DNA from: an uncultured bacterium
GTDB lineage: Bacteria > Bacillota_I > Bacilli_A > RFN20 > CAG-826
DNA: 64,000 bases
Reading direction: 5' to 3'
Assembly (NCBI GenBank): GCA_949285455.1
Contig: CASDXP010000002.1
Coordinates: 10,188-74,187 of the forward strand
A model generated the notes under the pieces. It worked only from the letters and a program-made list of their open reading frames with translations. It ran no database searches and was not told the origin of the DNA. Positions 797 to 64,000 of this stretch are shown here, one piece after another; position 1 is the stretch's first letter; the number at the start of each line of letters is the position of its first letter. A program made the translations under genes and the position numbers.

Positions 797-1687
797 TTAT
801 AAATTATCTTGTCGATGAATTTTACACTTTTCTACTTCGTAGCCTAATTTATCAAAATAATTTTCAGCTTTTTTCACTAATTTCTTATTATCAGTTAAAG
901 CGAACATCGAACTACCTGAACCAGTCATCGAAACAATTTTAAAACCATAGTCTTTTAATTCTTGTTCGATTTTAGTTAATTTAGGAAGCATATCTTTTGC
1001 TGGTACATATAAAGCGTTAGATAAATTATTAGCAATTAATTCATCATCACCTTCTTCTAATCCTTTACTCACTAAATCTAGATTAGCGATCGGTAATGCT
1101 TCGTAAGTATCACTTTTATCATAAACATCTTTCGTCGATAATGGTTCGTGTGGTTTAACTAATAAACAATAGTAATCTTTTTTAATTTTGATAGGTTTTA
1201 GATGTTCCCCTACTCCATCCACTCTCGCAGGTAAACCAAGCATTAAGAAATAGACGACATCTACTCCTATCGATAAAGCTAAATCTTTTAGTTGTTTTTT
1301 TGTTGGAGTAATTTCTAACATTTTAAAGATAGCTTGTAAACAAGCGGCTGCATCGCTTGAGCCACCACCTAAACCTGCACCCATAGGAATTGATTTATGG
1401 ATGTTGATACGGAATTGTTCTTCGAAATGAAAAATCTCGCGCGCTTTAGAAATAGCAATATGCGCAAGATTATATTTAGAAGGAATGGAAACGAAACTAT
1501 CACAAGTGACGTAAGTATCATTACCGTTTGGAATAAGAGTAATTTCAATTGTGTCATGTAACGTTAAAGGTAAATAAATCGAATCGATAAGATGATAACC
1601 ATCTTCTCTTCTCCCTAAAATATTAAACCCTAAGTTTATTTTCGCATTCGCTTTGATGTACATCGTTTTACTTTTCATTAGTTTCAT
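797..1687 (-). CDS. ispE: 4-diphosphocytidyl-2-C-methyl-D-erythritol kinase (GHMP kinase). The true start may be the internal Met at about 1663.
   Basis: KINLGFNILGRREDGYH and the glycine-rich loop PMGAGLGGGSSDAAA are typical of IspE. Adjacent to rsmA as in Firmicutes. Confidence 0.85.
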   Translation of the reverse strand: MKLMKSKTMYIKANAKINLGFNILGRREDGYHLIDSIYLPLTLHDTIEITLIPNGNDTYVTCDSFVSIPSKYNLAHIAISKAREIFHFEEQFRINIHKSIPMGAGLGGGSSDAAACLQAIFKMLEITPTKKQLKDLALSIGVDVVYFLMLGLPARVDGVGEHLKPIKIKKDYYCLLVKPHEPLSTKDVYDKSDTYEALPIANLDLVSKGLEEGDDELIANNLSNALYVPAKDMLPKLTKIEQELKDYGFKIVSMTGSGSSMFALTDNKKLVKKAENYFDKLGYEVEKCKIHRQDNL

Positions 1688-9760: not shown

Positions 9761-9771
9761 GGAGAGAAAAT

Positions 9772-10893
9772 ATGATATTTACAATAAGAAAAGATGTATT
9801 TCTCAAAGCGCTTAATGTCGCTAATAGGGCGCTTTCTTCTAAAGTTGCACTCCCAATTCTTAATTCTTTAAAACTTGAATTAGATGAAGAAGGGCTACAT
9901 ATTACTGGAAGCAATAACGATATAACAATAAAGACAACCGTTCCTTTAAAAGAAAACGATGAAGAAATTATTAGCAACACTAAATTTGGTGGAGCTTTAG
10001 TAAACGGGCGTCTTCTTACTGAAATTGTTAGAAAGTGTGAAAGAGATACTTTGACATTCGATATTTTTGATGAAACGATCGTCAAAATTAAATATGGAAA
10101 CTCTGGTTTTAATCTAAATTCAGCAAGAGCGGAAGAATATCCTGACTTCGATATGGAAGAAAAAGGCGTTGAAGTTGGTATGAAAGCTTCTTTATTTTCA
10201 AATTTAGTTGATACGGTTGCGTTTGCCGCTTCCACGAAAGAGCAAAGACCAGTTTTAACTGCAATTAATTTCGAAGCTAACGATGGTAGACTTGCTTGCA
10301 CGACTACGGATGGTTTTAGACTTGCAAGAATTGAAGCGAATTTAGATACGAACGAATCTTTCGTTGCAAACGTGCCTGCTAAGATGGCGCAAGAAGTAGC
10401 GAGATTAATCGATGGTGAAGAAAATATTCGTATCTATTTTGATACGAAAAAAGCTTTGTTTGTCTTCGGTAAAACTATCGTCAGCGTTAGATATGCCGCT
10501 GGTGAATTCCCCAACGCTAAAACTATCATTCCAAAGAGTTTTAATTACTTCTTAGAAATCAACGCTCAAGAATTACTTTCAGCGATGGATAGAGTTTCAA
10601 CTCTTTCTTTAGAAAGAGATAACATCGTCACCCTCAAAATGTCCGAATCGAGCGTAGAAGTTTCTTCTAAAGATAGCCAAAACGGTTCCGCGAACGAAGA
10701 AATTAGCGTTTTCCAATATCAAAACGAACCATTAGAAGTAAGTTTCAACTCTTCTTATGTAGCGCAGGCGATCAAGGCTGTTGGAACGACCGATGTCATC
10801 TTAGCATTTTTAGGCGAAATGAAGCCTTTTACGGTCAAGTCCACCAAAGATGACTCCATCGTCCAATTAGTGACGCCTAGACGCACTTATTAA
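9772..10893 (+). CDS. dnaN: DNA polymerase III beta sliding clamp
   Basis: MIFTIRKDVFLKALNVANRALSS N-terminus; 373 aa with three-domain clamp architecture. Position after dnaA. Confidence 0.93.
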   Translation: MIFTIRKDVFLKALNVANRALSSKVALPILNSLKLELDEEGLHITGSNNDITIKTTVPLKENDEEIISNTKFGGALVNGRLLTEIVRKCERDTLTFDIFDETIVKIKYGNSGFNLNSARAEEYPDFDMEEKGVEVGMKASLFSNLVDTVAFAASTKEQRPVLTAINFEANDGRLACTTTDGFRLARIEANLDTNESFVANVPAKMAQEVARLIDGEENIRIYFDTKKALFVFGKTIVSVRYAAGEFPNAKTIIPKSFNYFLEINAQELLSAMDRVSTLSLERDNIVTLKMSESSVEVSSKDSQNGSANEEISVFQYQNEPLEVSFNSSYVAQAIKAVGTTDVILAFLGEMKPFTVKSTKDDSIVQLVTPRRTY

Positions 10894-10925
10894 GCTAAAA
10901 ATAGGCGATTTTAAGCTAATGAATT

Positions 10926-10950
10926 CAAGGGAATAAATTGTTATTCCCTT
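10926..10950 (+). terminator. Rho-independent terminator after dnaN
   Basis: Hairpin AGGGAATA-aattg-TATTCCCT followed by TTTTT. Confidence 0.6.
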
Positions 10951-10994
10951 TTTAATTTATTTTTAGTATAATTACTCCGTAGGGTTTTTATTAT

Positions 10995-11217
10995 ATGAAT
11001 AAAAAAGAGCAAATTATCGTCTTTAAAGGTCCATATCTCACTTTGGGGCAATTGCTCAAGAAATTAGACCTTATCGATTCTGGTGGTGAAGCTAGACTTT
11101 TCTTAGCGACACATAAAGTTTCTGTCGACGGCGAAATTGAAACTAGAAGAGGAAGGAAACTCTACGATTGTTCTTACGTGGTCATCGATCAAAATAATTA
11201 CCGATTAAAAGAAGAAG

Positions 11218-11231
<14 letters not shown>
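10995..11231 (+). CDS. yaaA: S4-domain RNA-binding protein YaaA
   Basis: SGGEARLFLATHKVSVDGEIETRRGRKL S4 motif. Conserved slot between dnaN and recF. Confidence 0.8.
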
Positions 11232-14306
<3,075 letters not shown>

Positions 14307-14325
14307 TGAAAGGTGGTAACAAATA

Positions 14326-16911
14326 ATGTTTGAAGAAGAAGATAAAATTATCAACGAAGAAGTTGATGAAAAACTAGAAGAAGAAACACCCGTAAGCGAA
14401 GAGGGTGGAAATGATGATGGTGAAGCTAGTGCTGGTATCGTTCCAGGCTTAGTAGATGTCGACATCGCTAAAGAAGTAAGAAGTTCCTTCTTAGATTACG
14501 CTATGAGCGTCATCGTTGCACGTGCTTTACCAGATGTACGCGACGGTTTAAAACCCGTCCACAGACGTATTATTTTCGGTATGAACGAATCAGGTATCAC
14601 TCCTGATAAACCTTATAAAAAATGCGCTCGTATCGTCGGTGACGTCATGGGTAAATATCACCCGCACGGCGACGCCGCTATCTATTCAACTTTAGTCAGA
14701 TTAGCCCAACCCTTCTCCATGCGTTATACGCTTGTGGATGGTCACGGTAACTTTGGTTCCGTCGATGGTGATGAAGCTGCCGCTATGCGTTACACTGAAG
14801 CGAGAATGTCCAAACTATCTTTAGAGATGGTAAGAGATATTAATGATGATACTATCGACTTTGTCGATAACTACGATGGAACAGAAAGAGAACCATCAAT
14901 TTTACCTTCTAGAATTCCTAATTTATTAATTAATGGTAGTTCAGGTATTGCTGTTGGTATGGCGACTAACATGCCCCCACATAATCTCGGTGAAATTATC
15001 GATGGTATTCGCGCGGTCGCATTAAATCCAGAAATAAGCGTCGAAGAAATTATGGCTAATGCCATCCATGGTCCTGATTTCCCAACCGGTGGCATCATCT
15101 TAGGAAGAAGTGGTATTAAACAAGCCTATGAAACTGGTCAAGGAACGATTACAATTCGTTCTAAGTGCGAAATCGAAGAACACGCGAATGGTAAAAAATC
15201 TATCATCGTCACCGAAATTCCTTACCAAGTTAATAAAGCGACGATGATCGAAAAGATTGCCGATCTTGTTAAAAACAAGATTATCGATGGTATTACCGAC
15301 ATTCGTGATGAATCGAACCACGAAGGTATTAGGGTAGTTATCGAAGTAAGAAAAGATATCATTCCAGAAGTTTTATTAAATCAACTTTATAAGAATACTC
15401 AACTACAAGTATCTTATGGTATTATCAACCTTTGCTTAGTCAATAATGTACCAAAGGTACTAGGTATTAAAAACTTATTACAAGAATACTTAAATTTCCA
15501 AATTGAAGTCATCGAAAGAAGGACGAAATATCGTCTAAGAAAAGATGAACAAAGAGACCATGTCGTTTTAGGTTTACTTAAAGCCAGAGAAAACATTAAA
15601 GAAGTAGTGGATATTATCGTTGCTTCTGAAAGTGCGGAAGCAAGCGCGAAAGCTTTGATTGAAAGATTCGGTTTTAGCGACGCTCAAACGCAAGCTATCC
15701 TCGCTCTTCCATTAAGAAGATTATCTGGCATCGAAATCGAAAAACTTAAACAAGAAAGAATTCAACTTGAAAAGAACATTGCTTACTATCGCGACTTACT
15801 TAGCGATAGAAACAAACTTCAAGGCGTCGTCCTCGATGAATTAGTAGAAATTAAAAATCGCTACAATGATGAACGTAAGACAGAAATTTCTGATGCCTTA
15901 TCAACGATTGAAGATGAAGACTTAATCCCGGTGGAAAATATCGTCATCACTTTGACCGCTGGCGGATACGTGAAACGTCAAACTGTCGATACCTTCCACA
16001 CGCAAAATAGAGGTGGTAAAGGTATAAGAGGAACGCGTACGCATGAAAATGACGCAGTGAAGATTTTAGTCTACACTATCACGCACACCGATTTATTGTT
16101 CTTTACTACCCTTGGTAAAGTTTATCGTATGAGAGCGCACCAAATTCCTGCTTATAGTCGTGAATCGAAAGGTCTACCTATTCAAAACCTCATCAACTTA
16201 GATGAAAACGAAAAAGTTATCGCTATCATTTCTCTTGATCATTATGGCGAAGGAACTTACCTTTCCTTCATTACTAAGAAAGGTTTAATCAAGCGTACAA
16301 AAATTGAAGAATTCTTATCAATTAGACAAAATGGTAAGATCGCCATCTCTTTAAGAGATGATGATATGTTACTTGATGTTAAACACACATCTGGTTCCGC
16401 TGTCATTGGTATCGCCTCTAGCCTTGGTAAAATGGTTAAATTTGATGAAAACGATGCAAGAGCGATGGGTAGAACCGCAAGCGGTGTGAAAGCGATGAAC
16501 ACCGATGGTGGTGAATGTATCGGCGCTATTACAAGTGAAGAAGGAAATCTCGTTCTCGTCTTATCTGAAAATGGCTACGGTAAGATGACTTCATTTGATG
16601 AATATCGTATGACCAACCGCGGCACAAAAGGCGTTAAGACTTTGAAGACGACCGAAAAAATTGGTAATATTGTATGTGTTGCGATGGTCAATGGTAACGA
16701 AGACTTGATGGTTGTCACCGATAACGGAGTCATTATTCGTACACCACTTGAACAAGTACGCATCGCTTCAAGAAACACGCAAGGAGTGCGCATTATTCAA
16801 CTTGATAATAAGCGCAAAGTTTCCAACGTCGCTATCGTCCCACACGAAGAAGAAGAGGAAGAAGAAGGCGACGCGAATAATGTAGAAATTGCGGAAAATC
16901 CCGCGGAATAA
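14326..16911 (+). CDS. gyrA: DNA gyrase subunit A
   Basis: The AMRYTE(A) active-site Tyr region, the QRDR-like region [17 protein letters not shown], and an acidic C-terminal tail. Confidence 0.96.
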
Positions 16912-51883: not shown

Positions 51884-53074
51884 ATGAAATTGATAGTTAG
51901 AGAAAATTATTTAAATAAATTAATTGATGTAATCGATACACCAGATATAAAAATCATTACTGGCGTTAGAAGATCGGGGAAATCTAAACTATTAGATTGT
52001 TTCTATGATTATTTAAAATCCAATAATAAAGGCAATATTATAAGAATTAAATTGAATTTAAAGCAATTTGAAAAATTGCTGGATAAAGAAAAATTATATG
52101 AATATATAGACCAAAATTATGCCGAAGATGTTAATAATTATTTATTGATTGATGAAATTCAACTATGCAAAGACTTTGAAAGAATTATAAATAGTTTGCA
52201 TGAAGAAGAAAGATTCGACATATATTTGACAGGCTCAAACGCATTTCTTTTATCAAGCGATTTAGCGACTTTGTTTGGCGGGCGAGTTTTTGAAATAAAT
52301 ATGTTTCCATTTTCATTTAAGGAATTTTTAAAATATTTTCAATATCAAGATATTTATCAAGCTTTTGATGAATATGTCATAAAGGGAGGAATGTCTGGAA
52401 GTTATTTATATAAAAATAGCACGGATGCTTTTAAATACATAGAAGGCATTTATAAGACCACTATCGTAAAAGATATCGTACAAAAATATAAGATTGATAA
52501 CGAAGACTTGTTAATTCTAATCGCTAATTATTTAATTGATAATTTAGGAAATATTACATCGATTAGAAATTTGGCAAATTGTTTAACTTCTAACACTTAC
52601 AAGACTAACGATAAAACAGTAGGTTCTTATTTAGATTATTTATGTAAATCATTCTTGTTTTATCCTCTAAGAAGATATGACATTAAAGGTAAAAAATATT
52701 TAAAATCAGAAAGAAAATATTGTTTAGTAGATACTTCTTTTAGATATGCGACAATAGGAACGAAAAATGCAGATTATGGACACATATATGAAAACATAGT
52801 CGCCATTGAATTGTTGCGTAGGGGTTATGAACTATACGTTGGTGTGTTAAAAAATAAAGAAATAGATTATGTGGCAATTAAAAACGGAAATAAATTATAT
52901 ATTCAGGTAAGTGACGATATATCAAAAGAGGAAACATTTAAAAGAGAAATAGAACCATTATTAAGTATTAAAGATGCCTATCCTAAATTACTAATTGCTA
53001 GAACTAAACATCCTGAAAGCCAATATGAAGGGGTAGCAATAGTAGATATCGCCGATTGGCTAAATTATAAATAA
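51884..53074 (+). CDS. COG1373-type AAA+ ATPase with a degenerate C-terminal DUF4143/PD-(D/E)xK-like domain
   Basis: Walker A ITGVRRSGKSKL. The C-terminal EIDYVAI...IQVS region has QVS in place of the E-x-K seen in its paralogs. Confidence 0.7.
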   Translation: MKLIVRENYLNKLIDVIDTPDIKIITGVRRSGKSKLLDCFYDYLKSNNKGNIIRIKLNLKQFEKLLDKEKLYEYIDQNYAEDVNNYLLIDEIQLCKDFERIINSLHEEERFDIYLTGSNAFLLSSDLATLFGGRVFEINMFPFSFKEFLKYFQYQDIYQAFDEYVIKGGMSGSYLYKNSTDAFKYIEGIYKTTIVKDIVQKYKIDNEDLLILIANYLIDNLGNITSIRNLANCLTSNTYKTNDKTVGSYLDYLCKSFLFYPLRRYDIKGKKYLKSERKYCLVDTSFRYATIGTKNADYGHIYENIVAIELLRRGYELYVGVLKNKEIDYVAIKNGNKLYIQVSDDISKEETFKREIEPLLSIKDAYPKLLIARTKHPESQYEGVAIVDIADWLNYK

Positions 53075-53090
53075 TAGGCTTATTATCTTC

Positions 53091-53127
53091 ATTTCGCAAA
53101 AATTAAAAAATAATAATTTTGCGAAAT
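53091..53127. repeat. Second copy of the ATTTCGCAAAA-N15-TTTTGCGAAAT element, immediately downstream of the 51884 gene
   Basis: About 34 of 37 positions are identical to the copy at 51815-51851. Confidence 0.6.
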
Positions 53128-53327
53128 AACAATTATATTATTTCAAATTTGCATCTTCTAAGGTAATGAATTCCTTTTTCTGGTCACCCCCTTTCACGAT
53201 GCGACCTTTTTTGCTCGTTCCGCCTCAACTTTTACTTTAATGATTTCATCAATAAGTTCTTCTTTAGATAGAGAATCATAGTTCTTGTAATCAATAGTTT
53301 TCTTTTTGTTAACACAATAACCAAAAA

Positions 53328-53398
53328 TCCGATGTTTGTGACAAAAAATGCGAAAAAAATCCCATGTTTGTGACTAAATTTATCCCATGTTTGTAGCT
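53328..53398. repeat. Three direct repeats of ATCC(C/G)ATGTTTGT(G/A)(A/G)C
   Basis: Copies at 53328-53343, 53360-53375 and 53383-53398, in a non-coding decayed region. Confidence 0.55.
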
Positions 53399-53722
53399 AG
53401 TCGCTTAGAACAGTTCTAGTAAAACGCAAATTTTAGCTCTTTATTTGACTATAAAAATGAAGATGATTCACTAAGTTTTTCAAATGTTTGCGTAAAACAA
53501 TACTTTTGTTGCATTAAGATTTTATAGAAAGAGTAGCGAAAATAGATATCACTAACGAACTAAATTATTTCAAATTCTTTTCGTTTAAATGTTTAAATTT
53601 CTTTCTCTTATTACCTCTTTTTGATGCGCTTATTTAACAAAGCATAAAAAACTAGGTTTTCATCAAAACTTAAATTTTTTTCTTTTATTTTCTTTATATT
53701 TATCGTGGAGGTAAAAAAACAA

Positions 53723-53878
53723 ATGGCAAACAAATATGTTGGTGAATTTTTCGTAAATAACATGCGAACGAAAGAAGAAGTATTTGCGAACGATTCCATC
53801 CAAGCAAGAAAAATTATCGAAGCAAAATATCCTAACTGTAATATTAGATGGATCTTCTTCCCTAAAATTGTTCGTTAA
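53723..53878 (+). CDS. Small protein (51 aa), MANKYVGEFFVNNMRTKEEVFANDSIQARKIIEAKYPNCNIRWIFFPKIVR
   Basis: GGAGG RBS seven nucleotides upstream. Below the ORF-track size cutoff. Confidence 0.4.
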   Translation: MANKYVGEFFVNNMRTKEEVFANDSIQARKIIEAKYPNCNIRWIFFPKIVR

Positions 53879-53904
53879 AAAATAGAAAGGAAAATATTTA
53901 ATTT

Positions 53905-54676
53905 ATGGGTATCTTTAAAACAGTATTTGAATCATTATTTGGAAGTAAAAAACAAACTTCCACACAGCCTAATCCTGATGAGCCAAGCGCTCCAGTGAAT
54001 GATCATAATCCAAGAAATAAAAAAAGCGAACTGGTTTTCTTCTAAAGAAGGTATCGAAAGTTTAAAAGAACATACGACACCTAAAGCTTACTTATTAGAA
54101 GAAAGATTAAATCAAGAATTTAAAAATAAAAATTTCGGTGGAAGAGATGTTTCGTTCGACATTTTCTTAAATGTTTATCATAAGGACGCGGTCATCCCGC
54201 AAGTGTATTTCTCTAACTTTGTTAACACAATCGAAGCTCAACCATTAAAATATGTAGGGCCAAGTGAAATGCTTACAGGCGTCCTTTCCACCTTAGCGAA
54301 AACTTATTATTTAGATGATGATGGTGAACCAGTGGAAAAGAAAAGTGCGCTTACGCCTGAAGACCTAGTGTCTTTTGAAAATAATCCAGTTCTTAAATTC
54401 GTTAAAGCTTTCACTTGTTTCCAAATTGAAGATGATGATGAAGGATCATGGACTGATAAATTTGCTTTATATTCTGATGTTTTAATTTTCTTAGGATTAT
54501 GTAGTTTTGGAGATAAGAATGTCTTAAATGAAAATGCTTGGTTGCTTGATAAAACTACTTACTTCAATAATTTAGGTACGGTGAAGAAAGAAAAAGGATT
54601 CATCAAATATTGCATCGAAAAATGCACCTATCCTGATTATTGGAAGAGCAAATTAGACGAATTAGACGAAAAATAA
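53905..54676 (+). pseudogene. Gene with the MGIFK-type N-terminus interrupted by a frameshift at an A7 tract (54019-54025). It would be intact with A6.
   Basis: Frame 1 reads MGIFKTVFESLFGSKKQ...PRNKKSELVFF* with its stop at 54043. Deleting one A joins it to the 53999-54676 ORF (..KKANWFSSKEGIESL..). The N-terminus is paralogous to the 49205 protein. Confidence 0.5.
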
Positions 54677-54705
54677 ATAGATTCTTATCATTAACTTTAT
54701 TATTT

Positions 54706-54727
54706 AGGGACCTTCGGGTCTCTTTTT
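54706..54727 (+). terminator. Rho-independent terminator with a UUCG tetraloop
   Basis: AGGGACC-TTCG-GGTCTCT followed by TTTTT. Confidence 0.65.
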
Positions 54728-54745
54728 AATTAATATAGCTTTGAG

Positions 54746-54767
54746 TTGTCCTAATTTTGTGGACAAC
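54746..54767. promoter_or_regulatory. Inverted repeat GTTGTCC-N8-GGACAAC just upstream of the second Fic gene
   Basis: Perfect 7-bp arms at 54746-54752 and 54761-54767. Confidence 0.5.
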
Positions 54768-54794
54768 TGAATGGTGTTTTGTTATCATATACAT

Positions 54795-55643
54795 ATGATA
54801 AAATATTCAATTAGATATTTTAATGGTAAACCAATAAGAGCTATTTGGGACGCTGATAAAGCGATATGGCGATATTCCGCAGTGGATTTTATTACTGTTT
54901 TAATAAATCCCCATTCATCTCGCCGTTATTGGAACAATGTAAAAGCAAGAAATCCTACACTACTAGAGTTTTGTAGCCAAGCAAAACTATATGCATCTGA
55001 TAATAAAAAATATTTAACCGATGTCATCGATGAATTTGGTGTAAGGCTTTTACTTACTATCATTCCTTCTAAATATAAAAAAGAAATTCAAGATTGGTTA
55101 AAAGGAATGCTCGATCCCATCGATGAACAAAGTAAAAGGAAAGCTTATCAGCTATATCAAACATCACTCATTTCTGAAGACGAAATCGGAAAGACTATCG
55201 CCTTACAAAAAATACATGCTTTTCTATTTGAAGGATTATATCCTTTCGCGGGACAAATTCGCTCGAAAACAATAGCAAAAGGTGGATTCGTTTTCGCAAA
55301 CGGTGACTTTCTTCCTCAAATTCTTCCCAAGATAGATAAAATGATGGAAGATAATTTTGATCACATCGTGGAAAAATATGTGGAAATGAACATCGCTCAC
55401 CCATTTTTAGAAGGAAATGGTAGAGCGACGAGAATTTGGCTTGATTTAATACTCATTAAAAATCTTAAAAAATGTATCGATTGGTCAAAGATTGATAAAG
55501 ATGAATATCTCTTAGCGATGAAAGAAAGCCCATTTAATGATTTAAGGATTAAACAATTATTAAAAGATGCCATAACTAGTGAAATAGATAATAGAGAACT
55601 ATTTATTAAAGGAATCGATACCTCATATTATTACGAACGTTAA
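54795..55643 (+). CDS. Fic-family protein of the RhuM type. Start placed at MIKYSIRYF.
   Basis: HPFLEGNGRATR Fic motif. The N-terminal IRAIWDADKAIWRYSAVDFITVL resembles the RhuM / Bro-N-like N-terminus. Confidence 0.75.
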   Translation: MIKYSIRYFNGKPIRAIWDADKAIWRYSAVDFITVLINPHSSRRYWNNVKARNPTLLEFCSQAKLYASDNKKYLTDVIDEFGVRLLLTIIPSKYKKEIQDWLKGMLDPIDEQSKRKAYQLYQTSLISEDEIGKTIALQKIHAFLFEGLYPFAGQIRSKTIAKGGFVFANGDFLPQILPKIDKMMEDNFDHIVEKYVEMNIAHPFLEGNGRATRIWLDLILIKNLKKCIDWSKIDKDEYLLAMKESPFNDLRIKQLLKDAITSEIDNRELFIKGIDTSYYYER

Positions 55644-55806
55644 ACTATTATCAGATAATGAAAAATTTAACTAAGTTTTGACAAAAAGTACGCTTATAGG
55701 CAAAAATTAACAAAAGAGTTTCTAACTTTTATTTAAATTAATAACTTATCTATAGTTTAACTATAGATTTTTTAAAAATTAATGGATGGACGTCATTAGA
55801 TAAAAT

Positions 55807-55893
55807 AAAAACTCCCTTGAAAAAAGTTCCAACTCGATATAAAACTCCCTTGAAAAAAGTGCAAAAATGACTTCAAACTCCCTTGAAAAAAGT
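55807..55893. repeat. Three direct repeats of AAAACTCCCTTGAAAAAAGT with 34-bp periodicity, upstream of a COG1373 gene
   Basis: Copies at 55807-55827, 55841-55860 and 55875-55893. Confidence 0.7.
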
Positions 55894-55919
55894 TTAAAAT
55901 GTGTTTGGGAGATAAAGAA

Positions 55920-57272
55920 ATGTTTAAAAGAAAAATTTATGATCAAATCTTAAATTGGAAAAAATCAAGAAATCACAAACCATTAATTATTAGTGGTTTA
56001 AGACAAATCGGTAAGACGACGATTGTCGAAAATTTTGCCAAGGAAAATTACGAATCTGTCATCAAACTAGATTTTAGAAAAGACGCAAGTCTACATGAAA
56101 TTTTCGATGGCGATTTTGATATCAACACAATAATTTTTTCATTGTCATTAAAAAACAGCGAATATAAATTTATACCAAATAAAACTTGTTTAATTTTTGA
56201 TGAATTGCAAGATTGCCCGAATGCTAGGTCGTCTTTAAAATATTTTGCCTTAGATGGAAGATTTGATGTCATTTGTACTGGCTCTTTACTCGGCATTAAA
56301 AATTATCGTCACACCAAGAAACCTTTTAGAGGTATACCAGTGGGATTCGAAGATTATCTATTGATGAAACCGATGGATTTCGAAGAATTTCTATGGGCTA
56401 ATTCAATCGATCAATCTATTATTGATAATTTAAAGCAATGCATAGAAAAGAATACTCAAGTCAATACTTTTATACATCAAAAGATGCTTGGTTTATTCAA
56501 TAGATACATTTGTATTGGTGGGATGCCTGAAGTAGTGGATGCATACGTTAACAGTAATGATTTTAACGAAGTTAGAAAAATTCAAAGAAGAATTTTGCAA
56601 AGTTTTGAGGCTGATTTTGGCACTCATCTTAATGACCATAATGAAATAATTGTGGATGATAACGCTAAGGCAAAAATTATTGCGACCTTTAAGTCGATAC
56701 CACACCAACTAGCGAAAGATAATCAAAAATTTCAATATTCTGCTATTGTGAAAAATGCCAAAGGGAAAGAATATAAAACTGCTATTGAATGGTTAGAAGA
56801 TTATGGTCTTATTTCTCGATGCTATAACTTAACTTTGCCCGAGCTTCCATTCGATTCTTTTGTTACACAAAATTACTTCAAGATATATGCTGCCGATAGC
56901 GGATTATTTATCGCAATGTTAGATGATAATATTCCAGATCTAATCATCAATAATAAACTTAAGATTGCTAAAGGAGCAATATATGAAAATATAGTCGCAG
57001 ATGCTTTTTCTAAATTAGGAAGAAAATTATATTTCTATCATAAAAACAGCGGGCTAGAAATTGATTTCATTACTAGTTTTCATAAAGAAGTTGCGCTTGT
57101 AGAAGTAAAATCTAAAGATGGGAATGCAAAAGCAGCAAAAGAGATATTAAAAAATAAAGAAAAATATCAAGTAAATAAATTAATTAAACTTACCGCACAA
57201 AATATTGGCATTAATGAAAATATCTATACCTATCCTTATTATTTAACTTCATTCATATTTAAAGATGAATAA
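55920..57272 (+). CDS. COG1373-type AAA+ ATPase with a C-terminal DUF4143/PD-(D/E)xK-like domain. Start placed at MFKRK behind a GGGAG RBS.
   Basis: Walker A ISGLRQIGKTT; Walker B LIFDELQ; C-terminal EIDFITS...ALVEVKSK (D...E-V-K). Confidence 0.75.
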   Translation: MFKRKIYDQILNWKKSRNHKPLIISGLRQIGKTTIVENFAKENYESVIKLDFRKDASLHEIFDGDFDINTIIFSLSLKNSEYKFIPNKTCLIFDELQDCPNARSSLKYFALDGRFDVICTGSLLGIKNYRHTKKPFRGIPVGFEDYLLMKPMDFEEFLWANSIDQSIIDNLKQCIEKNTQVNTFIHQKMLGLFNRYICIGGMPEVVDAYVNSNDFNEVRKIQRRILQSFEADFGTHLNDHNEIIVDDNAKAKIIATFKSIPHQLAKDNQKFQYSAIVKNAKGKEYKTAIEWLEDYGLISRCYNLTLPELPFDSFVTQNYFKIYAADSGLFIAMLDDNIPDLIINNKLKIAKGAIYENIVADAFSKLGRKLYFYHKNSGLEIDFITSFHKEVALVEVKSKDGNAKAAKEILKNKEKYQVNKLIKLTAQNIGINENIYTYPYYLTSFIFKDE

Positions 57273-57334
57273 TTATTACTCAACTTATTATATTATAATA
57301 ATTTCATAAATCTAATGGAGGTAATGTGTTACAT

Positions 57335-58280
57335 ATGAAGAAGATTTTGCTTAGTGGTGTGGACGGTAATTTTGGTCGCGTCTGTGCAAAAGAATTACTA
57401 GATAAATATCCACATGAAGATTTAATTTTTACTGCGCCTAAAAAAAGAAGGTTTAAAAGCTTATGAAAACTTAGGTGTCACTTTAAGAGTCGCAGATTTT
57501 AATAATCCTGAAACTTTAAAAGAAGCATTTAAAGACGCAGATACGTTAATTTTAATTTCTATGCCTTTCGTAGGGCCTAGAAGAAGAAAAGTACAAAAAG
57601 ATGCGGTAGATGCCGCAAAAAGTGCTGGTGTAGACCGTATCGTTTATACTTCAATTGTCGGTGCTGGCCATAAAGATATCGACACTTACGAAGTTAATGA
57701 TCACGTTTACACCGAAGCCTATATTAAAGAAACTGGCCTTCATTATTTATTCATGAGAGATTCACAATACGCAGAAGCCATGGTCTCCAATTACATTAAT
57801 GCTTATACGAATACGAATAATGTTTTAGCTAATAATATGGGCCAAGGTAAGATGGCTTACATCTCACGTGATGATTGTGCGATATGCGCCGCGCACGCAG
57901 CGATGAGCGATTGGAAAGATCGCGTCGTCGACGTTAATGGTGCTGAACCTCTCACGATTGAAGAATATATTAATATCGCTAACGAAGTAACAGGACATAA
58001 TGTTAAATACATCGAAATTAGTGATGAAGAACTATATAAGTTCTTCGATTCTATTGGTGTCCCACACACTACCGAAGAGATGTGGGCGAAAACAGCGACT
58101 AACTTTCCTTTCTGCAGCGATGGCATGGTAACTTTTGGTAGAGCGATTAGGCTAGGTCAAATGTCAACATTTACGAATGACTTTGAAAAACTTGTCGGAA
58201 GAAAACCTATAAGTGTTAAAGAAATCTTTGAACACATGGAAGAACATCTAATTGGACAAAGAACTTCAACTGAAGATTAA
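57335..58280 (+). pseudogene. NmrA-like NAD(P)-binding (atypical SDR) gene interrupted by a frameshift at an A7 tract (57440-57446)
   Basis: MKKILLSGVDGNFGRVCAKELL Rossmann N-terminus stops at 57464-57466. With A6 it continues into the 57561-58280 frame (..APKKEGLKAYENLGV..ISMPFVGPRRRK..). Confidence 0.6.
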
Positions 58281-58388
58281 TTATTAAAAAGTTTTTATTA
58301 ATCATGGAAGAGTAACGATTCCTAAAGTCGTTACTTTTTTTGTTATTTTATTAATAACGTTTAAAATATTAGAAGAGGTGAGTAAAAC

Positions 58389-58724
58389 ATGTTTTGTAAG
58401 TATTGTGGAACAAAAATAGATACAGGAGTAAGAGTGTGTCCTCATTGTCATAATGTTTTAGACGATGGTGTAGGACCTCAAATGAATACATATAGAGGAG
58501 TGGAAGGAGCAAGCACTTTGCGTCTTTTAGCCTTCGTGTTCGCGCTTATAAATCTTATCTTAACCGCTTTTTGCATCATTCCTTTATGTTGGACTATTCC
58601 TATGACTATACACATTTATCGTGGCTATAAATATAACGATCCTATTTCCGTAGCGTTTAAGATTTGTACTTTATTATTTTTAAGTCTTATCGCGGGCATC
58701 CTTTTACTTTGTGATCAAGACTAA
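58389..58724 (+). CDS. Zinc-ribbon membrane protein
   Basis: N-terminal CKYCG...CPHCH zinc ribbon, followed by two TM helices. Confidence 0.55.
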   Translation: MFCKYCGTKIDTGVRVCPHCHNVLDDGVGPQMNTYRGVEGASTLRLLAFVFALINLILTAFCIIPLCWTIPMTIHIYRGYKYNDPISVAFKICTLLFLSLIAGILLLCDQD

Positions 58725-58897
58725 TAAAATCAGAAAACAAATTTGAAAAAAAACATATTTTATAAAGAAAAGATGAAGCATAAGAGAAACGATTTTAAAT
58801 TTTAAAAGATGGATTTGAAAAAATAATTATTGTTAAAAATAAATTAAAGCCAACCCGCAATGATAAAGGCATAGTTATCGTCGATCTTTTTGATTTT

Positions 58898-59000
58898 TTA
58901 CTAAACTCCCTTGATTTTTAGTCAAAAAATTGTCAAAACTCGCTTTAAAATTAGTCAAAAATATTACTAAACTCCCTTGATTATTAGTCAAATAACTTGT
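58898..59000. repeat. Two copies of a 37-bp direct repeat, TTACTAAACTCCCTTGATT(T/A)TTAGTCAAA..., that share the AAACTCCCTTGA core with the 55.8-kb repeats
   Basis: Copies at 58898-58934 and 58964-59000. The second abuts an extended -10 TGTTATAAT. Confidence 0.7.
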
Positions 59001-59031
59001 TATAATACTAATGTATTAAAGGGGTGATTTT

Positions 59032-60381
59032 ATGTATTTAAAACGTAAGATTGATAAAATTTTATTAGAATGGTGGAAAAAACCACATCATTCCCCCGCC
59101 TTAGTAAGTGGGGTAAGGCAATGTGGCAAAACGATGTCTATTCTTCAATTTGCTTCAAAGCATTTCGCTCATGTCATCTACATCAATTTTTGGAAGACAC
59201 CGAAGATTAAAGAATGTTTCGATACATCTTTAGACGTTGATAATATCATCAAATTATTATCATTTTTCGATGCGAGTTTTTCTTTTGAATCTTTCAAAAC
59301 AATCATCATTTTAGATGAAATTCAAGATTGTCCAAACGCACGTTTGTCGCTCAAATTTTTCAAAGAAGATGGTCGATTTGAAGTCATCGCTAGCGGATCA
59401 TATATTGGACTTAACATTTTAGAAAATGAAGTTCCTGTTCCTATGCCTAATGGTGCGGAAGATATCATTTATATGAAGACGATGGATTTTGAAGAATTCT
59501 TGTGGGCGAATGGTTACGATGGGGAAACTATTTCTCATCTAGAAAATTATTTTGAAAAGAAAGAAACTGTTCCATCTTCCATCCATGAGAAAATGAAACA
59601 GTTATTCAAAGAATACATGTGCGTTGGGGGCTATCCAGAAGTTGTTTTAGATTATGTTTCTTCACATAATTTTTCATCCGCGTTCAATAAAATTAATAGC
59701 CTTATCTTTGATATTAAAGGTGACCCAATTAAAAGGATGAACGAAGAAGGAAAAAGTTTATATAATCCAAGCGAAATTATGCGCATTCAAAATGCTTTCG
59801 ATTTGATTGTTTCATCTTCCTTTAAAGATAATCAAAGATTCGTCATCTCTAAAATTAGTCATGGGAATGGATTAGTTAATAAAGACGCAGTTAATTATTT
59901 AGTAAACGCAAATGTAGCTTTTAAAGTTCATAATGTAGCGAATGTAAGCTTACCTTTAATCGTCTCCAAAATAGAAAGTGATTTCAGATTATATTACAGC
60001 GATATCTCTATTTTTATGGCTATGTGTGGCTTCGACACCATTAAGGCTTTAATGCAAGATAGCTTAGGAATGAATAAAGGTCAAATTTATGAAGCCGCTT
60101 TAGCGGACTCTTTGTATAAGGCTTCTATTCCTACTTATTATTTTCGTAAAAGTAGTGGTCTAGAAATAGATTTTGTCATATCTTATTTAGGATATTCAAC
60201 TCTAATCGAGGCTAAAGCGAAAAAAGGTAACGCTAAGTCTTCAAAAACTATCATGAATAATAAGGAACATTATGGAGTAACTAAATTAATTAAATTCGGT
60301 GATTACAATATCGCGCAAGAAAATGATGTTCTTACCTTGCCTTACTATTTAGCGTTCCTACTCAATAGAACAAAAGTCTAA
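59032..60381 (+). CDS. COG1373-type AAA+ ATPase with a C-terminal DUF4143/PD-(D/E)xK-like domain
   Basis: Walker A VSGVRQCGKTM; Walker B IILDEIQ; C-terminal EIDFVIS...TLIEAKAK. Confidence 0.75.
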   Translation: MYLKRKIDKILLEWWKKPHHSPALVSGVRQCGKTMSILQFASKHFAHVIYINFWKTPKIKECFDTSLDVDNIIKLLSFFDASFSFESFKTIIILDEIQDCPNARLSLKFFKEDGRFEVIASGSYIGLNILENEVPVPMPNGAEDIIYMKTMDFEEFLWANGYDGETISHLENYFEKKETVPSSIHEKMKQLFKEYMCVGGYPEVVLDYVSSHNFSSAFNKINSLIFDIKGDPIKRMNEEGKSLYNPSEIMRIQNAFDLIVSSSFKDNQRFVISKISHGNGLVNKDAVNYLVNANVAFKVHNVANVSLPLIVSKIESDFRLYYSDISIFMAMCGFDTIKALMQDSLGMNKGQIYEAALADSLYKASIPTYYFRKSSGLEIDFVISYLGYSTLIEAKAKKGNAKSSKTIMNNKEHYGVTKLIKFGDYNIAQENDVLTLPYYLAFLLNRTKV

Positions 60382-60843: not shown

Positions 60844-62421
60844 ATGGCAAATAAGAAGAAATTTTATATTACTACCCCAATTTATTATGCGAGTGCAAGA
60901 CCGCATCTAGGTAATGCATATTGTACAGTTCTAGCTGATTTCATCGCTCGTAATAGAAGATTACTTGGTTACGATACTTATTTTTTAACTGGTCTAGACG
61001 AACATGGTCAAAAAATAGAAGCGAAAGCTAAAGAACATAACATGGAACCAAAAGCTTACGTCGATAGCATCGCGAACACGTTTAAGGACTTATGGAAATT
61101 ATTCGATATTAGTTACGATGGTTTCATTCGTACGAGCGAAGATAGACACGTCGAAGTTGTGCAAAAAGTTTTCTCAAGATTACTAAAGCAAGATGATTTA
61201 TATCTTGGAGAATATGAAGGGTGGTACTGCGAGCCTTGTGAATCTTTTTGGACGGATACGCAAGTGGGGGAAAATCACGTTTGCCCAGATTGTGGAAGGC
61301 CTGTAAGAAAAGAAAAAGAACAAACTTATTTCTTTAAGACAAATAAATATTTAGATAATCTTTTAGATTACTATAAAAATAATCCAAGATTTGTCATTCC
61401 TCAAACTAGACTTAACGAAATGGTTAACACTTTTATTAAACCTGGATTGAATGATCTATGCGTTTCAAGAACTTCATTTAAATGGGGTGTACCAGTTTTA
61501 GAAGATAAACGCCACGTCGTCTACGTTTGGCTAGATGCTTTGATGAATTATTTAAGTGCTTTAGGTTACTTAAGCGAAGATGATTCTTTATTCCAAAAAT
61601 ATTGGAATGATAAAGACGCCACTATCGTGCATCTTCTAGGCCACGAAATTACTAGATTCCACGCGATTTATTGGCCGATGTTTTTAAAAGCCTTAGATTT
61701 AAGATTACCAAACACTTTATTCGTCCACGGTCTGCTTATGATGAAAGATGATAAGATGTCTAAATCGAAAGGTAATATCATCGATCCTGTTCCACTTTGT
61801 GAACGTTATAGCGTAGATGCGGTAAGATATTTCTTAGCGAGAGAAATTCATTTTGGCGATGATGGAAGATTTACTCCTGATATTTTCGTCGACCGCATTA
61901 ATGCGGACCTCGTCAATAACTTCGGTAATTTAGTCAATCGTACCGTGACGATGATCGATAAATATTTCGATGGTATCATTCCTTCGATTGAAGATGAAGA
62001 TAAAGACTTATTAAGCGAGATGAAGTTAGATTTCGAACGTTACGTCAAACAAAGCGATAATTTGGAGATGACTGAATCATTAGTCACTGTGGCAGAACTT
62101 GTCAGCGCTGGTAATAAATTTATCGAAGTAAGAAAACCTTGGGAACAAGCTAAAAATGAAGATAAGGAAGAACTAAAAGTTACTTTATCAATGCTTTCGC
62201 GTCTCATCGTTTTAGCCACAACTTTATATTCGCCAATACTCGTCAATTCTTATAAGAAAGTTTATACGATGTTTGAAGTTAATGAAGATGAACATTTAAT
62301 CGAACATTTATTAAATGATAAAAACTTCTTAGCGAACAAGAAAGTGCATAAAAGGGAAGTGCTCTTCCCTCGTCTTGATAGCAAGGTAGAAATACCTTAC
62401 ATTCAATCTTTGATGAAGTGA
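60844..62421 (+). CDS. metG: Methionyl-tRNA synthetase, short form (525 aa)
   Basis: Class I HLGN motif (PIYYASARPHLGNAY), KMSKS, and the zinc knuckles CEPCESFW...CPDCGRP. Confidence 0.95.
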   Translation: MANKKKFYITTPIYYASARPHLGNAYCTVLADFIARNRRLLGYDTYFLTGLDEHGQKIEAKAKEHNMEPKAYVDSIANTFKDLWKLFDISYDGFIRTSEDRHVEVVQKVFSRLLKQDDLYLGEYEGWYCEPCESFWTDTQVGENHVCPDCGRPVRKEKEQTYFFKTNKYLDNLLDYYKNNPRFVIPQTRLNEMVNTFIKPGLNDLCVSRTSFKWGVPVLEDKRHVVYVWLDALMNYLSALGYLSEDDSLFQKYWNDKDATIVHLLGHEITRFHAIYWPMFLKALDLRLPNTLFVHGLLMMKDDKMSKSKGNIIDPVPLCERYSVDAVRYFLAREIHFGDDGRFTPDIFVDRINADLVNNFGNLVNRTVTMIDKYFDGIIPSIEDEDKDLLSEMKLDFERYVKQSDNLEMTESLVTVAELVSAGNKFIEVRKPWEQAKNEDKEELKVTLSMLSRLIVLATTLYSPILVNSYKKVYTMFEVNEDEHLIEHLLNDKNFLANKKVHKREVLFPRLDSKVEIPYIQSLMK

Positions 62422-62425
62422 AGAT

Positions 62426-62455
62426 AAAAGGTCGCTAGTGAGGCGACCTTTTTCT
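62426..62455. terminator. Bidirectional terminator between metG and the convergent gene
   Basis: AAAAGGTCGC-tagtgag-GCGACCTTTT. Confidence 0.7.
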
Positions 62456-63849
62456 TACTTGAGTAAGAATAATTTACCTTTCGTCTCTTTACCGTTCGTC
62501 TTAATTAAACCTTTTTCTAATAAATTATTTAAGTAATTATTTAAACGATATTTACCAATAGACATTAAATCTTTCAAAGAATTTAAACTTAATCCATTTT
62601 TATGTTCTTTTAATAATTGGATGATTTGTTCTTCTAATTCATCTAGAGCGTTTTGGAAGAAAAGTGTCACTTCCACAAATAATAAGACATTATTAAATTC
62701 GTAGATAGGCGACATATATTTTAGTCTTTTTTGATTTTCTAAGACGGTAGGAATGCCTGTTCCAGCTTTATCACCCAATTTAATATTTCGAAAGATGGTA
62801 GCGATGCCTAGATTTCTTGGATAAGAAAACCCTCCTTGAAAAGCTTCTTCTAAAGAGATGATCATATCTCCGCTATTGCGGATGATAAGCCTATTATTAT
62901 CGAGGATAATTTTGATACCAGTTGGCAAGGAAAAATCGCAGTTAAAAATCGCATTTAAAAATAGTTCTATTGCGCTTTCATACACTAATTTATGACCGAC
63001 ATCGACATCGTTATTTAAAGCGTAAGGAGAAGGTAGGCGCATATTTAAATCGCTACTCACTAATTGATAGAAATCGAAGACATTTCCGCTAAAAGTTAAA
63101 TCGTCGCTCACGATACGTTGTTGCCATTTATTATCGAAATCGTTTTTGACGATGTAATCTAAACTGAAATTAGGAAAGATATTTCGTATTTGTAATAAAT
63201 TACTAAAAAGAACGACAGCAGCGTTCGTAGCTATCAATTTATCATCATGTTTTTTTAAAACACCCACAAGTGTAAAAAATGTTTCATCATCATAATTTTT
63301 AAACATGTTGTTTGGATTAGCGATATCAAACATTTCGCGGTAGCGTTTTAAACTAGGAGCGTTCAACTCTTCTAAACCAATACCTAACTTATTAATTTCC
63401 AAATCGAAGCTTGTGATGCTCGCGCGATTTAATAATGAAAGAACGTGATTATGATTCATCAATCGATCATTTTCACCATCGCGCACATACGATAAATACG
63501 GATTAGCGTTAAGATAAATTGGCTTTTCTAAATAAGAAGCCATACGGATGTGAACTTCAATTATTTTTTTATTTTTATATTCTATAAGTCTTACATCATC
63601 GCTATTTAGAATGTTTTTTGAAACTTTATTCGTATTATTTGCCACATCAAAAATTGTTTTCATAATATTAGAGGGATTATTTACTCCAACGATCTTATTT
63701 TCACCGTTTTTAACTTTTTCGATTCCCAAATAAATAGTGCCCCCATTACTGTTTGCAAAACTTGAATAAGTTTCCCAAAAGGTGGAAGGTAGTTTATCTT
63801 TCGCTTCTTTAAGTTCAACAACGTTTGATTCTTTTAATTGTTCATACAT
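62455..63849 (-). CDS. AlbA_2 / Schlafen-like divergent AAA domain protein with a C-terminal winged HTH
   Basis: The N-terminal VVELKEAK...ANSNGGTIYLGIEK matches the AlbA_2 signature. C-terminal wHTH LSLNSLKDLMSIGKYRLNNYLNNLLEKGLIK. Confidence 0.65.
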   Translation of the reverse strand: MYEQLKESNVVELKEAKDKLPSTFWETYSSFANSNGGTIYLGIEKVKNGENKIVGVNNPSNIMKTIFDVANNTNKVSKNILNSDDVRLIEYKNKKIIEVHIRMASYLEKPIYLNANPYLSYVRDGENDRLMNHNHVLSLLNRASITSFDLEINKLGIGLEELNAPSLKRYREMFDIANPNNMFKNYDDETFFTLVGVLKKHDDKLIATNAAVVLFSNLLQIRNIFPNFSLDYIVKNDFDNKWQQRIVSDDLTFSGNVFDFYQLVSSDLNMRLPSPYALNNDVDVGHKLVYESAIELFLNAIFNCDFSLPTGIKIILDNNRLIIRNSGDMIISLEEAFQGGFSYPRNLGIATIFRNIKLGDKAGTGIPTVLENQKRLKYMSPIYEFNNVLLFVEVTLFFQNALDELEEQIIQLLKEHKNGLSLNSLKDLMSIGKYRLNNYLNNLLEKGLIKTNGKETKGKLFLLK

Positions 63850-63876
63850 AAATAATCACCCATCTATAGTTTAGAA

Positions 63877-63956
63877 AATAATCTATCTAATTTCAACATT
63901 ATTCTATCTAATTTTTCCAATAATCTATCTAATTTTATAAATATTCTATCTAATAG
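63877..63956. repeat. Four direct repeats with the core TCTATCTAAT at 20-21 bp periodicity, upstream of the AlbA_2/wHTH gene
   Basis: Cores at 63883-63892, 63903-63912, 63924-63933 and 63945-63954. Confidence 0.75.
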
Positions 63957-64000
63957 ATTCTGAAAGAATATTTGGTTAATTATATAATAATTAAAGATTT

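Follow-up and report, generated by a model that had tools for sequence, protein, structure and literature searches.

The window analysed here, a stretch of 64,000 nucleotides (nt) from an uncultured bacterium of the lineage RFN20 (contig CASDXP010000002.1), carries near its far end, on the reverse strand, a gene for a protein of 464 residues in which a Schlafen (AlbA_2) domain, a GHKL-like domain and a winged helix-turn-helix (wHTH) domain follow one another. It is related to the antiviral Schlafen nucleases of humans. Directly upstream of this gene lies an array of four phased direct repeats, and the relation between the protein and this array is the subject of the present analysis. Both had been noticed in an earlier reading of the DNA made from the letters alone (hereafter the original prediction), which had suggested autoregulation. 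Loci used for comparison are designated by L numbers, and the coordinates of the features are collected in Table 1.

The array consists of four exact TCTATCTAAT cores starting at 63882, 63903, 63924 and 63945. The original prediction had the cores right and gave their spacing as 20-21 bp; it is exactly 21, 21 and 21 bp. Tandem Repeats Finder (TRF) describes the region 63877-63954 with a period of 21, 3.7 copies and a score of 100. On the gene strand, the unit is a box of about 16 nt, aaATTAGATAGAwTAwT, and the four cores are identical while the spacers between them differ. No further exact TCTATCTAAT copy is present within the 64-kb window. Copies with at most one mismatch number 12 as compared to 11.5 expected, those with one mismatch being scattered singles, and a scan for 8-mers recurring at a lag of 20 or 21 nt (3,194 scan windows of 120 nt) is strong only for starts 63821-63861, covering 63821-63980. 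Further box copies, which would point to a regulon, are equally absent from the approximately 85-90 kb of non-overlapping sequence of the species contained in the window, L001, L002 and L172, a coverage at which a regulon may still exist. The top promoter match on the gene strand is TTGAAA-17-TAAACT. Box 1 fills its spacer, boxes 2 to 4 run upstream, and the repeated boxes overlap the predicted core promoter of the putative regulator's own gene, in the same register in the orthologues.

An exact-sequence look-up of the protein gave no record, and two relatives, 96% (L001) and 89% (L002) identical at the amino acid level, stood in for it. Both loci hold boxes at the same four positions, one box of L002 being degenerate (ATTAAAGAGA), and both continue with ordinary, non-repeated sequence past box 4. 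The original prediction had left room for a longer array, unrelated to the gene, that would extend past position 64000; this is ruled out by the sequence of L001 and L002, where the array stops after box 4.

More distant relatives were collected from species-representative genomes (more than 590 found, the nearest 80 kept) and from metagenomes, where mostly distant subfamilies were encountered and the close relatives added were L088 and L089; look-ups added L169 and L170. Orthologues with 42-47% identity are flanked by unlike genes, namely gtf3/pfkB in L003, acnX/EAL in L004 and tsaD/aspS in L006, and secG/LRR is a further neighbour pair among the orthologues with 33-47% identity. Every one of the latter bears direct repeats, 3-5 in number and of a sequence peculiar to it, with a period of 20 or 21 bp. 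The upstream repeat is TTTCAGCAGAwTATT in L003 (five to six copies; array word TTCAGCAGA), GAACAAGAATAAT in L004 and TTTCGAAAAGAwwAw in L006. Above approximately 33% identity, all loci with enough upstream sequence bear repeats, weak and irregular ones in L009 and L012. The 20/21-bp period signal is well above that of shuffled controls, and most of the more distant subfamilies are devoid of upstream repeats. Box orientation is constant across lineages, and from the start of the proximal box to the ATG there are 31-50 nt. Of ten lineages judged by eye, nine have a -35-like element (TTGAAA, TTGATT, TTGACA or TTGCAA) in the interval from box 2 to box 1, with the -10 element directly following box 1 after a spacer of 16-17 bp; the -35 placement is that of the window in L003, L004, L013, L014, L015, L020, L022 and L089. 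Many arrays begin distally with an inverted or palindromic box, as in L003 (AATCTGCTGAA), L022 (ATTCTCCCGGGAGAAT, a perfect 16-bp palindrome), L004, L013 and L015. The upstream neighbours in other lineages differ and are co-directional, and arrays are nonetheless present, with lineage-specific sequence. Since the box differs for each orthologue while period, orientation and promoter position are kept in unrelated neighbourhoods, the gene is the only constant partner of the array. The box varies by lineage next to this one constant neighbour, which makes the encoded protein the most economical candidate for reading the boxes.

The composition of the boxes points in the same direction. Those of the subfamily have a common 3' half, (A/G)AwTAwT, and a variable 5' half. 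Among the 158 complete proteins, only 18 carry NGx(1-2)T[KR]G[KR] as their wing motif, and these are the array-bearing ones with a GAwTAwT-like half, which is less clear in L009, L011, L012, L017 and L169; the other common wing type (G.N[KR]NR.Y) goes with boxes of a different kind. Alike recognition helices are accompanied by alike variable halves (L013/L015/L089; L011/L012/L169; L043/L082), a pairing that was judged by eye for the promoter arrays, where boxes of different lineages are not unambiguously alignable. L006 and L168 have identical recognition helices and the same box, despite a diverged upstream region and diverged 5' 700 nt. It fits these observations that the wing would read the conserved A/T half and the recognition helix the private half; this helix reads KYRLNNYLNN in the window protein and RYQVNECLNK in that of L003. 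The box sequence seems to change together with the protein in relatives, and the protein therefore probably regulates its own gene. As to L006 (5893-6700) and L168, they are syntenic orthologues of which the upstream region and the first approximately 700 nt, encoding the Schlafen domain, are only 43-66% identical, as compared to 80-92% for the genes on either side and for the gene's own 3' half, the flanks having 85-92%. This mosaic suggests a recombinational replacement of the 5' part.

The 464-residue open reading frame (ORF) carries the sequences ELKEAK (residues 12-17) and NGGTIYLGIEK (residues 35-45), in which the original prediction had recognized an AlbA_2 N terminus. A hidden Markov model search confirms this assignment: residues 7-132 match the Pfam profile SLFN_AlbA_2 (PF04326) over positions 1-118 of 118 with 52 bits, the cut-off being 25.3. 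A bacterial AlbA_2 domain (2KYY) is the fold match of this part (E 5.7e-6) as well as the top sequence match in the PDB; the match to the N-terminal domain of SLFN13 is weak (E 6.8e-3, probability 0.28). The catalytic Ex4(E/D)xK motif of Schlafen nucleases, defined in PMC13056530, is intact in the window protein (E7-SNVV-E12-L-K14), and among 33 homologues E12 is invariant while E7 and K14 are each at least 90% conserved. This motif and the central GHKL-like domain had been missed in the original prediction, which was correct in placing AlbA_2 and wHTH domains at the two ends. Residues 311-388 match HATPase_c_4 (Pfam PF13749) with 37.1 bits, above the cut-off of 26, and the middle of the protein matches histidine-kinase catalytic domains by fold with a probability of 0.9-0.99. 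E295, N299, N325, G327, G363 and G365 are invariant across the 33 homologues; E295/N299 represent the N box and G363/G365 a G2-like motif, and the G1 position reads N325-S-G327, not DxGxG.

The C-terminal wHTH, also predicted originally, is borne out by its fold. In an AlphaFold2 model built on the 33 homologues (predicted local distance difference test score 90.8), the C-terminal stretch of approximately 64 residues can be superposed on wHTH domains of the MarR family (MepR, including the DNA complex 4LLL, MexR and AdcR) with a root-mean-square deviation of 1.5-2.7 Å. DSSP assigns helices to residues 404-415, 422-429 and 433-445 and strands to 449-451 and 460-463. All HTH profile matches, in residues 408-459, are sub-threshold (HTH_52, 18 bits with a cut-off of 26.6; MarR_2, 12.9 bits with a cut-off of 27), and NCBIfam gave sub-threshold matches only (Sta1 and Lrs14, 18 bits versus cut-offs of 80 and 90). 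The domain fits the fold, yet it falls outside these four named HTH families tested by profile. The best solved match to the whole length of the model is DIP2311 (3LMM, E 4e-20). Because of the central GHKL-like domain and the intact Ex4ExK motif, the protein seems best described as a putative latent nuclease effector with a built-in DNA-reading domain, rather than as a plain transcription factor. Its nuclease activity and its role in defence are likewise putative.

Plasmids carry homologues of approximately 31-34% identity, as do Streptococcus satellite phages, close to one end of the element, and Schlafen fusions are published phage-defence effectors (PMC13056530); the placing of this architecture in conflict systems by the original prediction is therefore a fair description. 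The RecG-like annotation that it had mentioned also exists, one source calling relatives 'ATP-dependent DNA helicase RecG'. In Javan-series satellite phages (MK448645, MK448606 and others; H13-H22), a homologue with approximately 31% identity, annotated as 'ATP-dependent DNA helicase' or hypothetical, lies 1.5-2.7 kb from one end. PADLOC (2023) holds no model matching the whole protein and assigned no system, the weak partial matches being to an Aga_SIR2 region and a Csa3-type wHTH. The former concerns residues 154-337 (E 1.7e-5, 21 bits) and Aga_SIR2-PNTD1-PNTD2, a SIR2-associated prokaryotic Argonaute partner; Schlafen-Argonaute-GHKL fusions have been described in a 2026 preprint.

Table 1. 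Features of the Schlafen locus in the window and array copies flanking related genes
Feature	Coordinates	Strand	Remarks
ORF of 464 amino acids, Schlafen (AlbA_2) - GHKL-like (HATPase_c_4) - winged HTH	62455..63849	-	ATG start; stop codon 62455-62457
Schlafen/AlbA_2 nuclease-type domain, residues 7-132	63454..63831	-	PF04326, 52 bits; fold match 2KYY
E7-x4-E12-x-K14 (ESNVVELK)	63808..63831	-	read from translation; fits Ex4(E/D)xK
GHKL-like HATPase_c_4 domain, residues 311-388	62686..62919	-	PF13749, 37.1 bits; histidine-kinase catalytic-domain fold matches
C-terminal MarR-like winged HTH, residues ~400-464	62458..62652	-	recognition helix KYRLNNYLNNLL; wing NGKETKGK
Shine-Dalgarno-like GGGTGA	63856..63861	-	6 nt before ATG; read from sequence
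-10-like TAAACT	63868..63873	-	17 bp past -35; promoter scan; invariant in L001, L002
Box 1 (promoter-proximal) core, ATTAGATAGA on gene strand	63882..63891	-	-42..-33 from ATG; inside 17-bp spacer
-35-like TTGAAA	63891..63896	-	between box 2 and box 1; promoter scan; invariant in L001, L002
Box 2 core	63903..63912	-	exact copy
Box 3 core	63924..63933	-	exact copy
Box 4 (distal) core	63945..63954	-	exact copy
11-bp palindrome ATCTAATAGAT	63948..63958	.	distal edge of array; inverted partial box overlapping box 4; conserved in L001, L002
Promoter-like CTGAAA-17-TATAAT	63960..63988	+	faces away from Schlafen gene, beside box 4; consensus match only
G+C-rich hairpin with T tracts	62426..62452	.	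terminator common to convergent metG and Schlafen gene
Downstream array copy, L003	+1398..+1517 from ATG
Downstream array copy, L004	+1248..+1513 from ATG
Downstream array copy, L006	+1410..+1488 from ATG
Downstream array copy, L013	+1432..+1498 from ATG
Downstream array copy, L089	~+1440..+1500 from ATG
Flanking array copies, L171	9631-9665 and 11146-11180

Autoregulation, as proposed in the original prediction, is strongly supported by comparison: the boxes are private to each lineage, and the 20/21-bp period, the orientation and the promoter position are kept in unrelated neighbourhoods. Control by the protein of its own gene can thus be considered as supported, and repression seems a likelier sign of this control than activation; both the binding and its sign are what we infer. 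Negative autoregulation, in which the protein's own wHTH would bind the four boxes and occupancy of box 1 would block RNA polymerase, is in our judgement the probable arrangement, if some way from certain. Each box would be bound by one winged HTH, with the recognition helix reading the lineage-specific half (TTAGATA) and the conserved wing (NGKxTKGK) reading the A/T-rich half (GAwTAwT). As 21 bp correspond to two helical turns, four protomers would lie on one face of the DNA, and binding would probably be cooperative. It would probably start at the distal dyad; once the proximal box, between -35 and -10, is filled, RNA polymerase would be excluded, and a potentially toxic nuclease would thereby be held at a low, buffered level. 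Of the analogy with repressor or iteron sites drawn in the original prediction, the repressor-type operator is the likelier part; an iteron origin is not supported, because the locus is chromosomal and without a Rep gene.

Several observations weigh against negative autoregulation. MarR-type domains usually bind inverted repeats as dimers, not tandem repeats as monomers. The predicted leader is very short (approximately 12 nt), and the promoter assignment is therefore to be taken as no more than a consensus match. Shared ancestry and physical linkage are confounders wherever box and helix co-vary. In L168, two weaker inverted boxes stand in place of the upstream array, with an unchanged wHTH. 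Finally, L172, which belongs to the same species (methionyl-tRNA synthetase 97% identical), is without the Schlafen gene and keeps three exact boxes with 21-bp spacing. These boxes (5209-5340) come directly after the metG terminator and upstream of DUF7674, an arrangement that corresponds to window positions ~62422-62452 joined to 63882-63990. The missing segment comprises the stretch from the stop codon to the -10 region and one 21-bp unit, and the junction shows a microhomology of only 2-3 nt. The boxes of L172 could be a recent relic, or the array could serve something else, for example the divergent DUF7674-CofD operon.

The window is chromosomal, with dnaA, dnaN, gyrB and gyrA at 8-17 kb (8273-16911). 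Cumulative GC skew has its minimum near 8-10 kb, and the chromosomal replication origin region lies within the window. The Schlafen gene is convergent with metG, and rpmE and metG adjoin it. Three paralogous AAA_14-DUF4143 ATPase genes (51884-53074, 55899-57272 and 59032-60381) adjoin rpmE/metG in turn, and a Fic-domain gene (54771-55643) lies in the same island; L001 adds HipA/HipB and ATPase_2. The region 51884-60381 is regarded as a variable island because its gene content differs among the window, L001 and L002. Past box 4, L001 and L002 have divergently transcribed DUF4417/DUF7674-CofD genes. The CTGAAA-17-TATAAT site is possibly the promoter of these genes, which lie beyond the end of the window, and the array could also affect them. 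A scan of 62300-64000 against Rfam gave no meaningful match.

In six lineages (L003, L004, L006, L013, L089 and L171), a second array is present directly past the stop codon, so that the gene is bracketed by a direct repeat of 39-267 bp with 91-100% identity; the copy in L004 includes the last approximately 180 nt of the gene. Assembly collapse as a source of these flanking repeats is excluded by differences of 6-9% between the copies in L003, L004 and L013. Tandem paralogues were rejected as the source of the duplicated array, since tblastn with the window protein gives a second match in 1 of 167 loci (L162), a search that is insufficiently sensitive for the 60-residue gene fragment in L004. 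The window's own gene has no downstream array copy. On the gene strand, its last codons (62458-62480, KLFLLK) read AAATTATTCTTACTCAAG, with an 11/15 match to the + strand box form ATTATTCTATCTAAT; this box-like stretch, inverted and located where the gene ends, may be due to chance in A/T-rich DNA.

A further case is the sister species L171, which has no gene at the window's site and a different Schlafen-GHKL-wHTH gene approximately 5.6 kb away (9684-11120, - strand), between ABC2 and ATP-grasp genes. This gene is flanked on both sides by an identical 54-bp ACTTTGAAGTA array with a period of 11/12, and the empty counterpart of the site in the window's species (L001 2487-2582, L172 11235-11330; beyond the window end) holds relic ACTTTGAAGTA copies. 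Recombination between flanking arrays is a reasonable reading of how such genes may be gained and lost. In other subfamilies (L136/L137, L027, L063, L071), local sequence makes up direct repeats of 20-50 bp that flank the gene; it is that of the upstream gene's 3' end, of a terminator hairpin, or of the leader with the ribosome-binding site of the gene that follows. These repeats look like an insertion footprint.

In the larger subfamilies that are without promoter arrays, a tandem array of words (TCGGCGATAAAAA and GTGACGATAAAAA are examples) lies within the DNA that codes for the linker preceding the wHTH. The intragenic word consists of 3-5 variable nt followed by GATAAAAA, at nt ~1195-1300, as in L055, L046, L031, L023 and L070. 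The same 10-nt word is repeated in the linker DNA of at least 63 loci, 74 ORFs contain at least three GATAA words, and of 159 ORFs approximately 115 have a tandem repeat at nt ~1190-1400 according to TRF. From one word to the next, the distance is 13 and 14 nt by turns. As neither is divisible by three, the word is translated in two frames, as GDK and as AIK; the remaining frame, in which it would contain a TAA stop, never occurs. Selection on this repeat seems to act at the level of DNA. L043, L082 and L056 have words of this kind outside the gene, as upstream boxes in intergenic DNA, and in several genes one inverted copy precedes the internal run, a layout as in the promoter arrays. Changes in the variable part of the word go along with changes in the recognition helix; 44 distinct combinations are seen, among them GAC|GAT with (S/T)R.K, TCGGC|GAT with SR.RDYL, and.AGC|GAT with ARAR, RTR or RAR. 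The mutual information between word and helix is significant by permutation, phylogeny not being corrected for. These findings suggest that the keeping of private words at the protein's own locus is a family-wide trait. Roadblock feedback, cis-tethering and isoform control are roles that the intragenic arrays may have. In the same linker, in-frame tandem repeats of 21 nt (7 residues) are encountered as well: VPDTEQA x8 (L135, +1298..1475), SPDKDLN x5 (L026, +1487..1601), VQINDPD x4 (L058, +1241..1339) and SEVKNGK x7 (L165, +1501..1649). Their unit equals the period of the promoter array.

Helically phased tandem direct repeats are typical of winged-helix activators such as OmpR and PhoB, and the boxes might accordingly be activator sites, in positive autoregulation or a dual switch, with upstream protomers recruiting RNA polymerase. 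Three of the four boxes do lie upstream of the -35 element; the proximal one, however, is located between near-consensus -35 and -10 elements with an optimal spacer of 16-17 bp in most lineages, which is a repressor position, and positive feedback on a likely toxic nuclease seems risky. Activation is thus an unlikely sign here. Slightly more credit, though still little, can be given to the array as a tether or assembly platform, instead of or besides an operator, on which the nuclease would oligomerise at its home boxes and stay inactive until an infection cue; where the gene has an array on either side, the locus would be bracketed or looped. Such a role would make sense of the second array past the stop codon in L003, L004, L006, L013, L089 and L171 and of the cognate words that other subfamilies hold within their own coding DNA, and it would agree with published Schlafen defence proteins, which are latent nucleases, switched on by fused sensors, and purify as oligomers (PMC13056530). 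The window gene has an upstream array only, though, the strict promoter geometry is more simply explained by repression, and an effect of DNA binding on nuclease activity is purely conjectural here.

It is improbable that another factor reads the boxes, or that they mainly control the divergent DUF4417/DUF7674-CofD genes with the Schlafen gene nearby by accident. The promoter-like site beside box 4 does face away from the gene, and L172 has kept three exact boxes upstream of DUF7674 without a Schlafen gene; elsewhere, however, upstream neighbours differ and are co-directional, yet lineage-specific arrays persist, no other box copy exists in the 85-90 kb of the species, and a host factor would leave unexplained why the box changes alongside wing and helix. 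Still less can be said for the repeats as leftovers of a variable locus that arose by recombination, slippage or cassette turnover and have no regulatory role. It is true that some strains have the gene and others lack it, that it is accompanied by flanking direct repeats in several lineages and that a 21-bp unit can be lost, as in L172 with its three boxes; but scars would hold neither period, orientation and promoter register across more than 15 lineages of differing sequence, nor four identical cores while the spacers diverge, and we consider such an origin very improbable. Iterons of a plasmid- or phage-type replication origin were rejected and deserve hardly any credence. Direct repeats approximately 21 bp apart, joined by a partial copy in inverted orientation, do recall the layout of iteron origins and rep promoters, but the window is chromosomal, as seen from dnaA, dnaN, gyrB and gyrA and from the adjoining rpmE and metG, the array accompanies the Schlafen gene through many chromosomal contexts, and there is no Rep-like ORF at the locus.

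Beyond negative autoregulation at the window's gene, it could be imagined that each Schlafen-GHKL-wHTH protein recognises a DNA word private to it, of which its own locus holds several copies. The word would take the form of a 20/21-bp promoter array, often with a second array past the stop codon, or, in the largest subfamilies, of a 13/14-nt linker array. The arrays would then be not just operators, but a home site where a latent nuclease is assembled, silenced or sensed, and flanking arrays would let the gene pop out and return by recombination. This family-wide proposal is a tentative one, and we would not bet on it as it stands. Arrays on both sides of the gene, at empty sites and, in two frames, in coding DNA suggest a tie between the protein and its own DNA that is closer than simple repression. 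If the HTH indeed reads a private promoter array, this would explain how a dangerous nuclease is safely dosed, and it would provide a ready experimental handle, consisting of an 80-bp fragment and a 65-residue domain. Moreover, since the box differs while the geometry is the same, the lineages would offer natural orthogonal protein-operator pairs for studies of winged-helix specificity or as parts.

Two known kinds of system stand behind the array, iteron-like winged-helix sites and self-regulated conflict genes. The initiators of iteron plasmids (RepA, pi, TrfA) are winged-helix proteins that bind as monomers to direct repeats approximately two helical turns apart, and autorepression in these systems comes from an inverted partial repeat located at the rep promoter. 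The window array is similar in having a run of direct repeats with an inverted copy at one end, overlapping its own promoter. In contrast, the protein has no relation to Rep in sequence or architecture, there is no origin, the locus is chromosomal, and here it is the direct repeats themselves that overlap the promoter. With the MarR family, BrxR/CapW-type regulators and toxin-antitoxin (TA) autoregulation, the system has in common that a winged HTH at its own promoter would repress a harmful or costly conflict gene. Those regulators are separate small proteins that act as dimers on inverted repeats, whereas here the DNA-binding domain is fused to the effector and faces 3-5 tandem direct repeats with a period of 20-21 bp. 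Head-to-tail binding on phased direct repeats around a promoter is reminiscent of OmpR/PhoB response regulators and of ParR-parC, an analogy of geometry only, as there is no receiver domain and no partition function.

As to the protein, the best structural matches to the whole model and the N-terminal domain, DIP2311 of Corynebacterium diphtheriae (3LMM) and 2KYY, are structural-genomics entries without assigned function or DNA sites, at 16-21% identity. TrlG of Photorhabdus laumondii is likewise an AlbA_2 and HATPase_c_4 protein; growth is arrested at 36-37 C in the presence of its wild-type gene, and mutants that have lost its function tolerate this temperature (PMC7554251), which fits, by analogy, a harmful effector needing restraint. 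Unlike the window gene, trlG is part of a three-gene operon that is induced by a temperature up-shift, and no repeat array or autoregulation has been reported for it (PMC7554251). Prokaryotic Schlafens have been recognised as phage-defence nucleases only in 2025-2026. In a classification of 5,930 of them, 'HisKinase-HTH' fusions make up 19.2%, approximately a fifth, and are the second commonest architecture (Perez Taboada et al., Nat Microbiol 2026, PMC13056530). The window protein resembles this pSlfn class in the order of its parts, PF04326 with the Ex4(E/D)xK motif coming first, then a histidine-kinase-like (GHKL) domain and then an HTH; its members are often found in variable or defence regions (PMC13056530). 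Other Schlafen fusions defend against phage via tRNA cleavage (PMC13056530, PMC13552941); the HTH-bearing members were outside the tested systems, and the two HisKinase fusions that were included gave no defence (PMC13056530). The genes studied there run from native promoters, and neither an operator nor phased private box arrays are described (PMC13056530). Full-text literature searching on this protein family and on bacterial Schlafens likewise found no description of such arrays. The protein therefore belongs to a known class, and new are the phased, lineage-private putative operator array and its family-wide counterparts. Taken alone, the window array would be a fairly ordinary autoregulatory set-up; it is the pattern at the level of the family that raises its interest.

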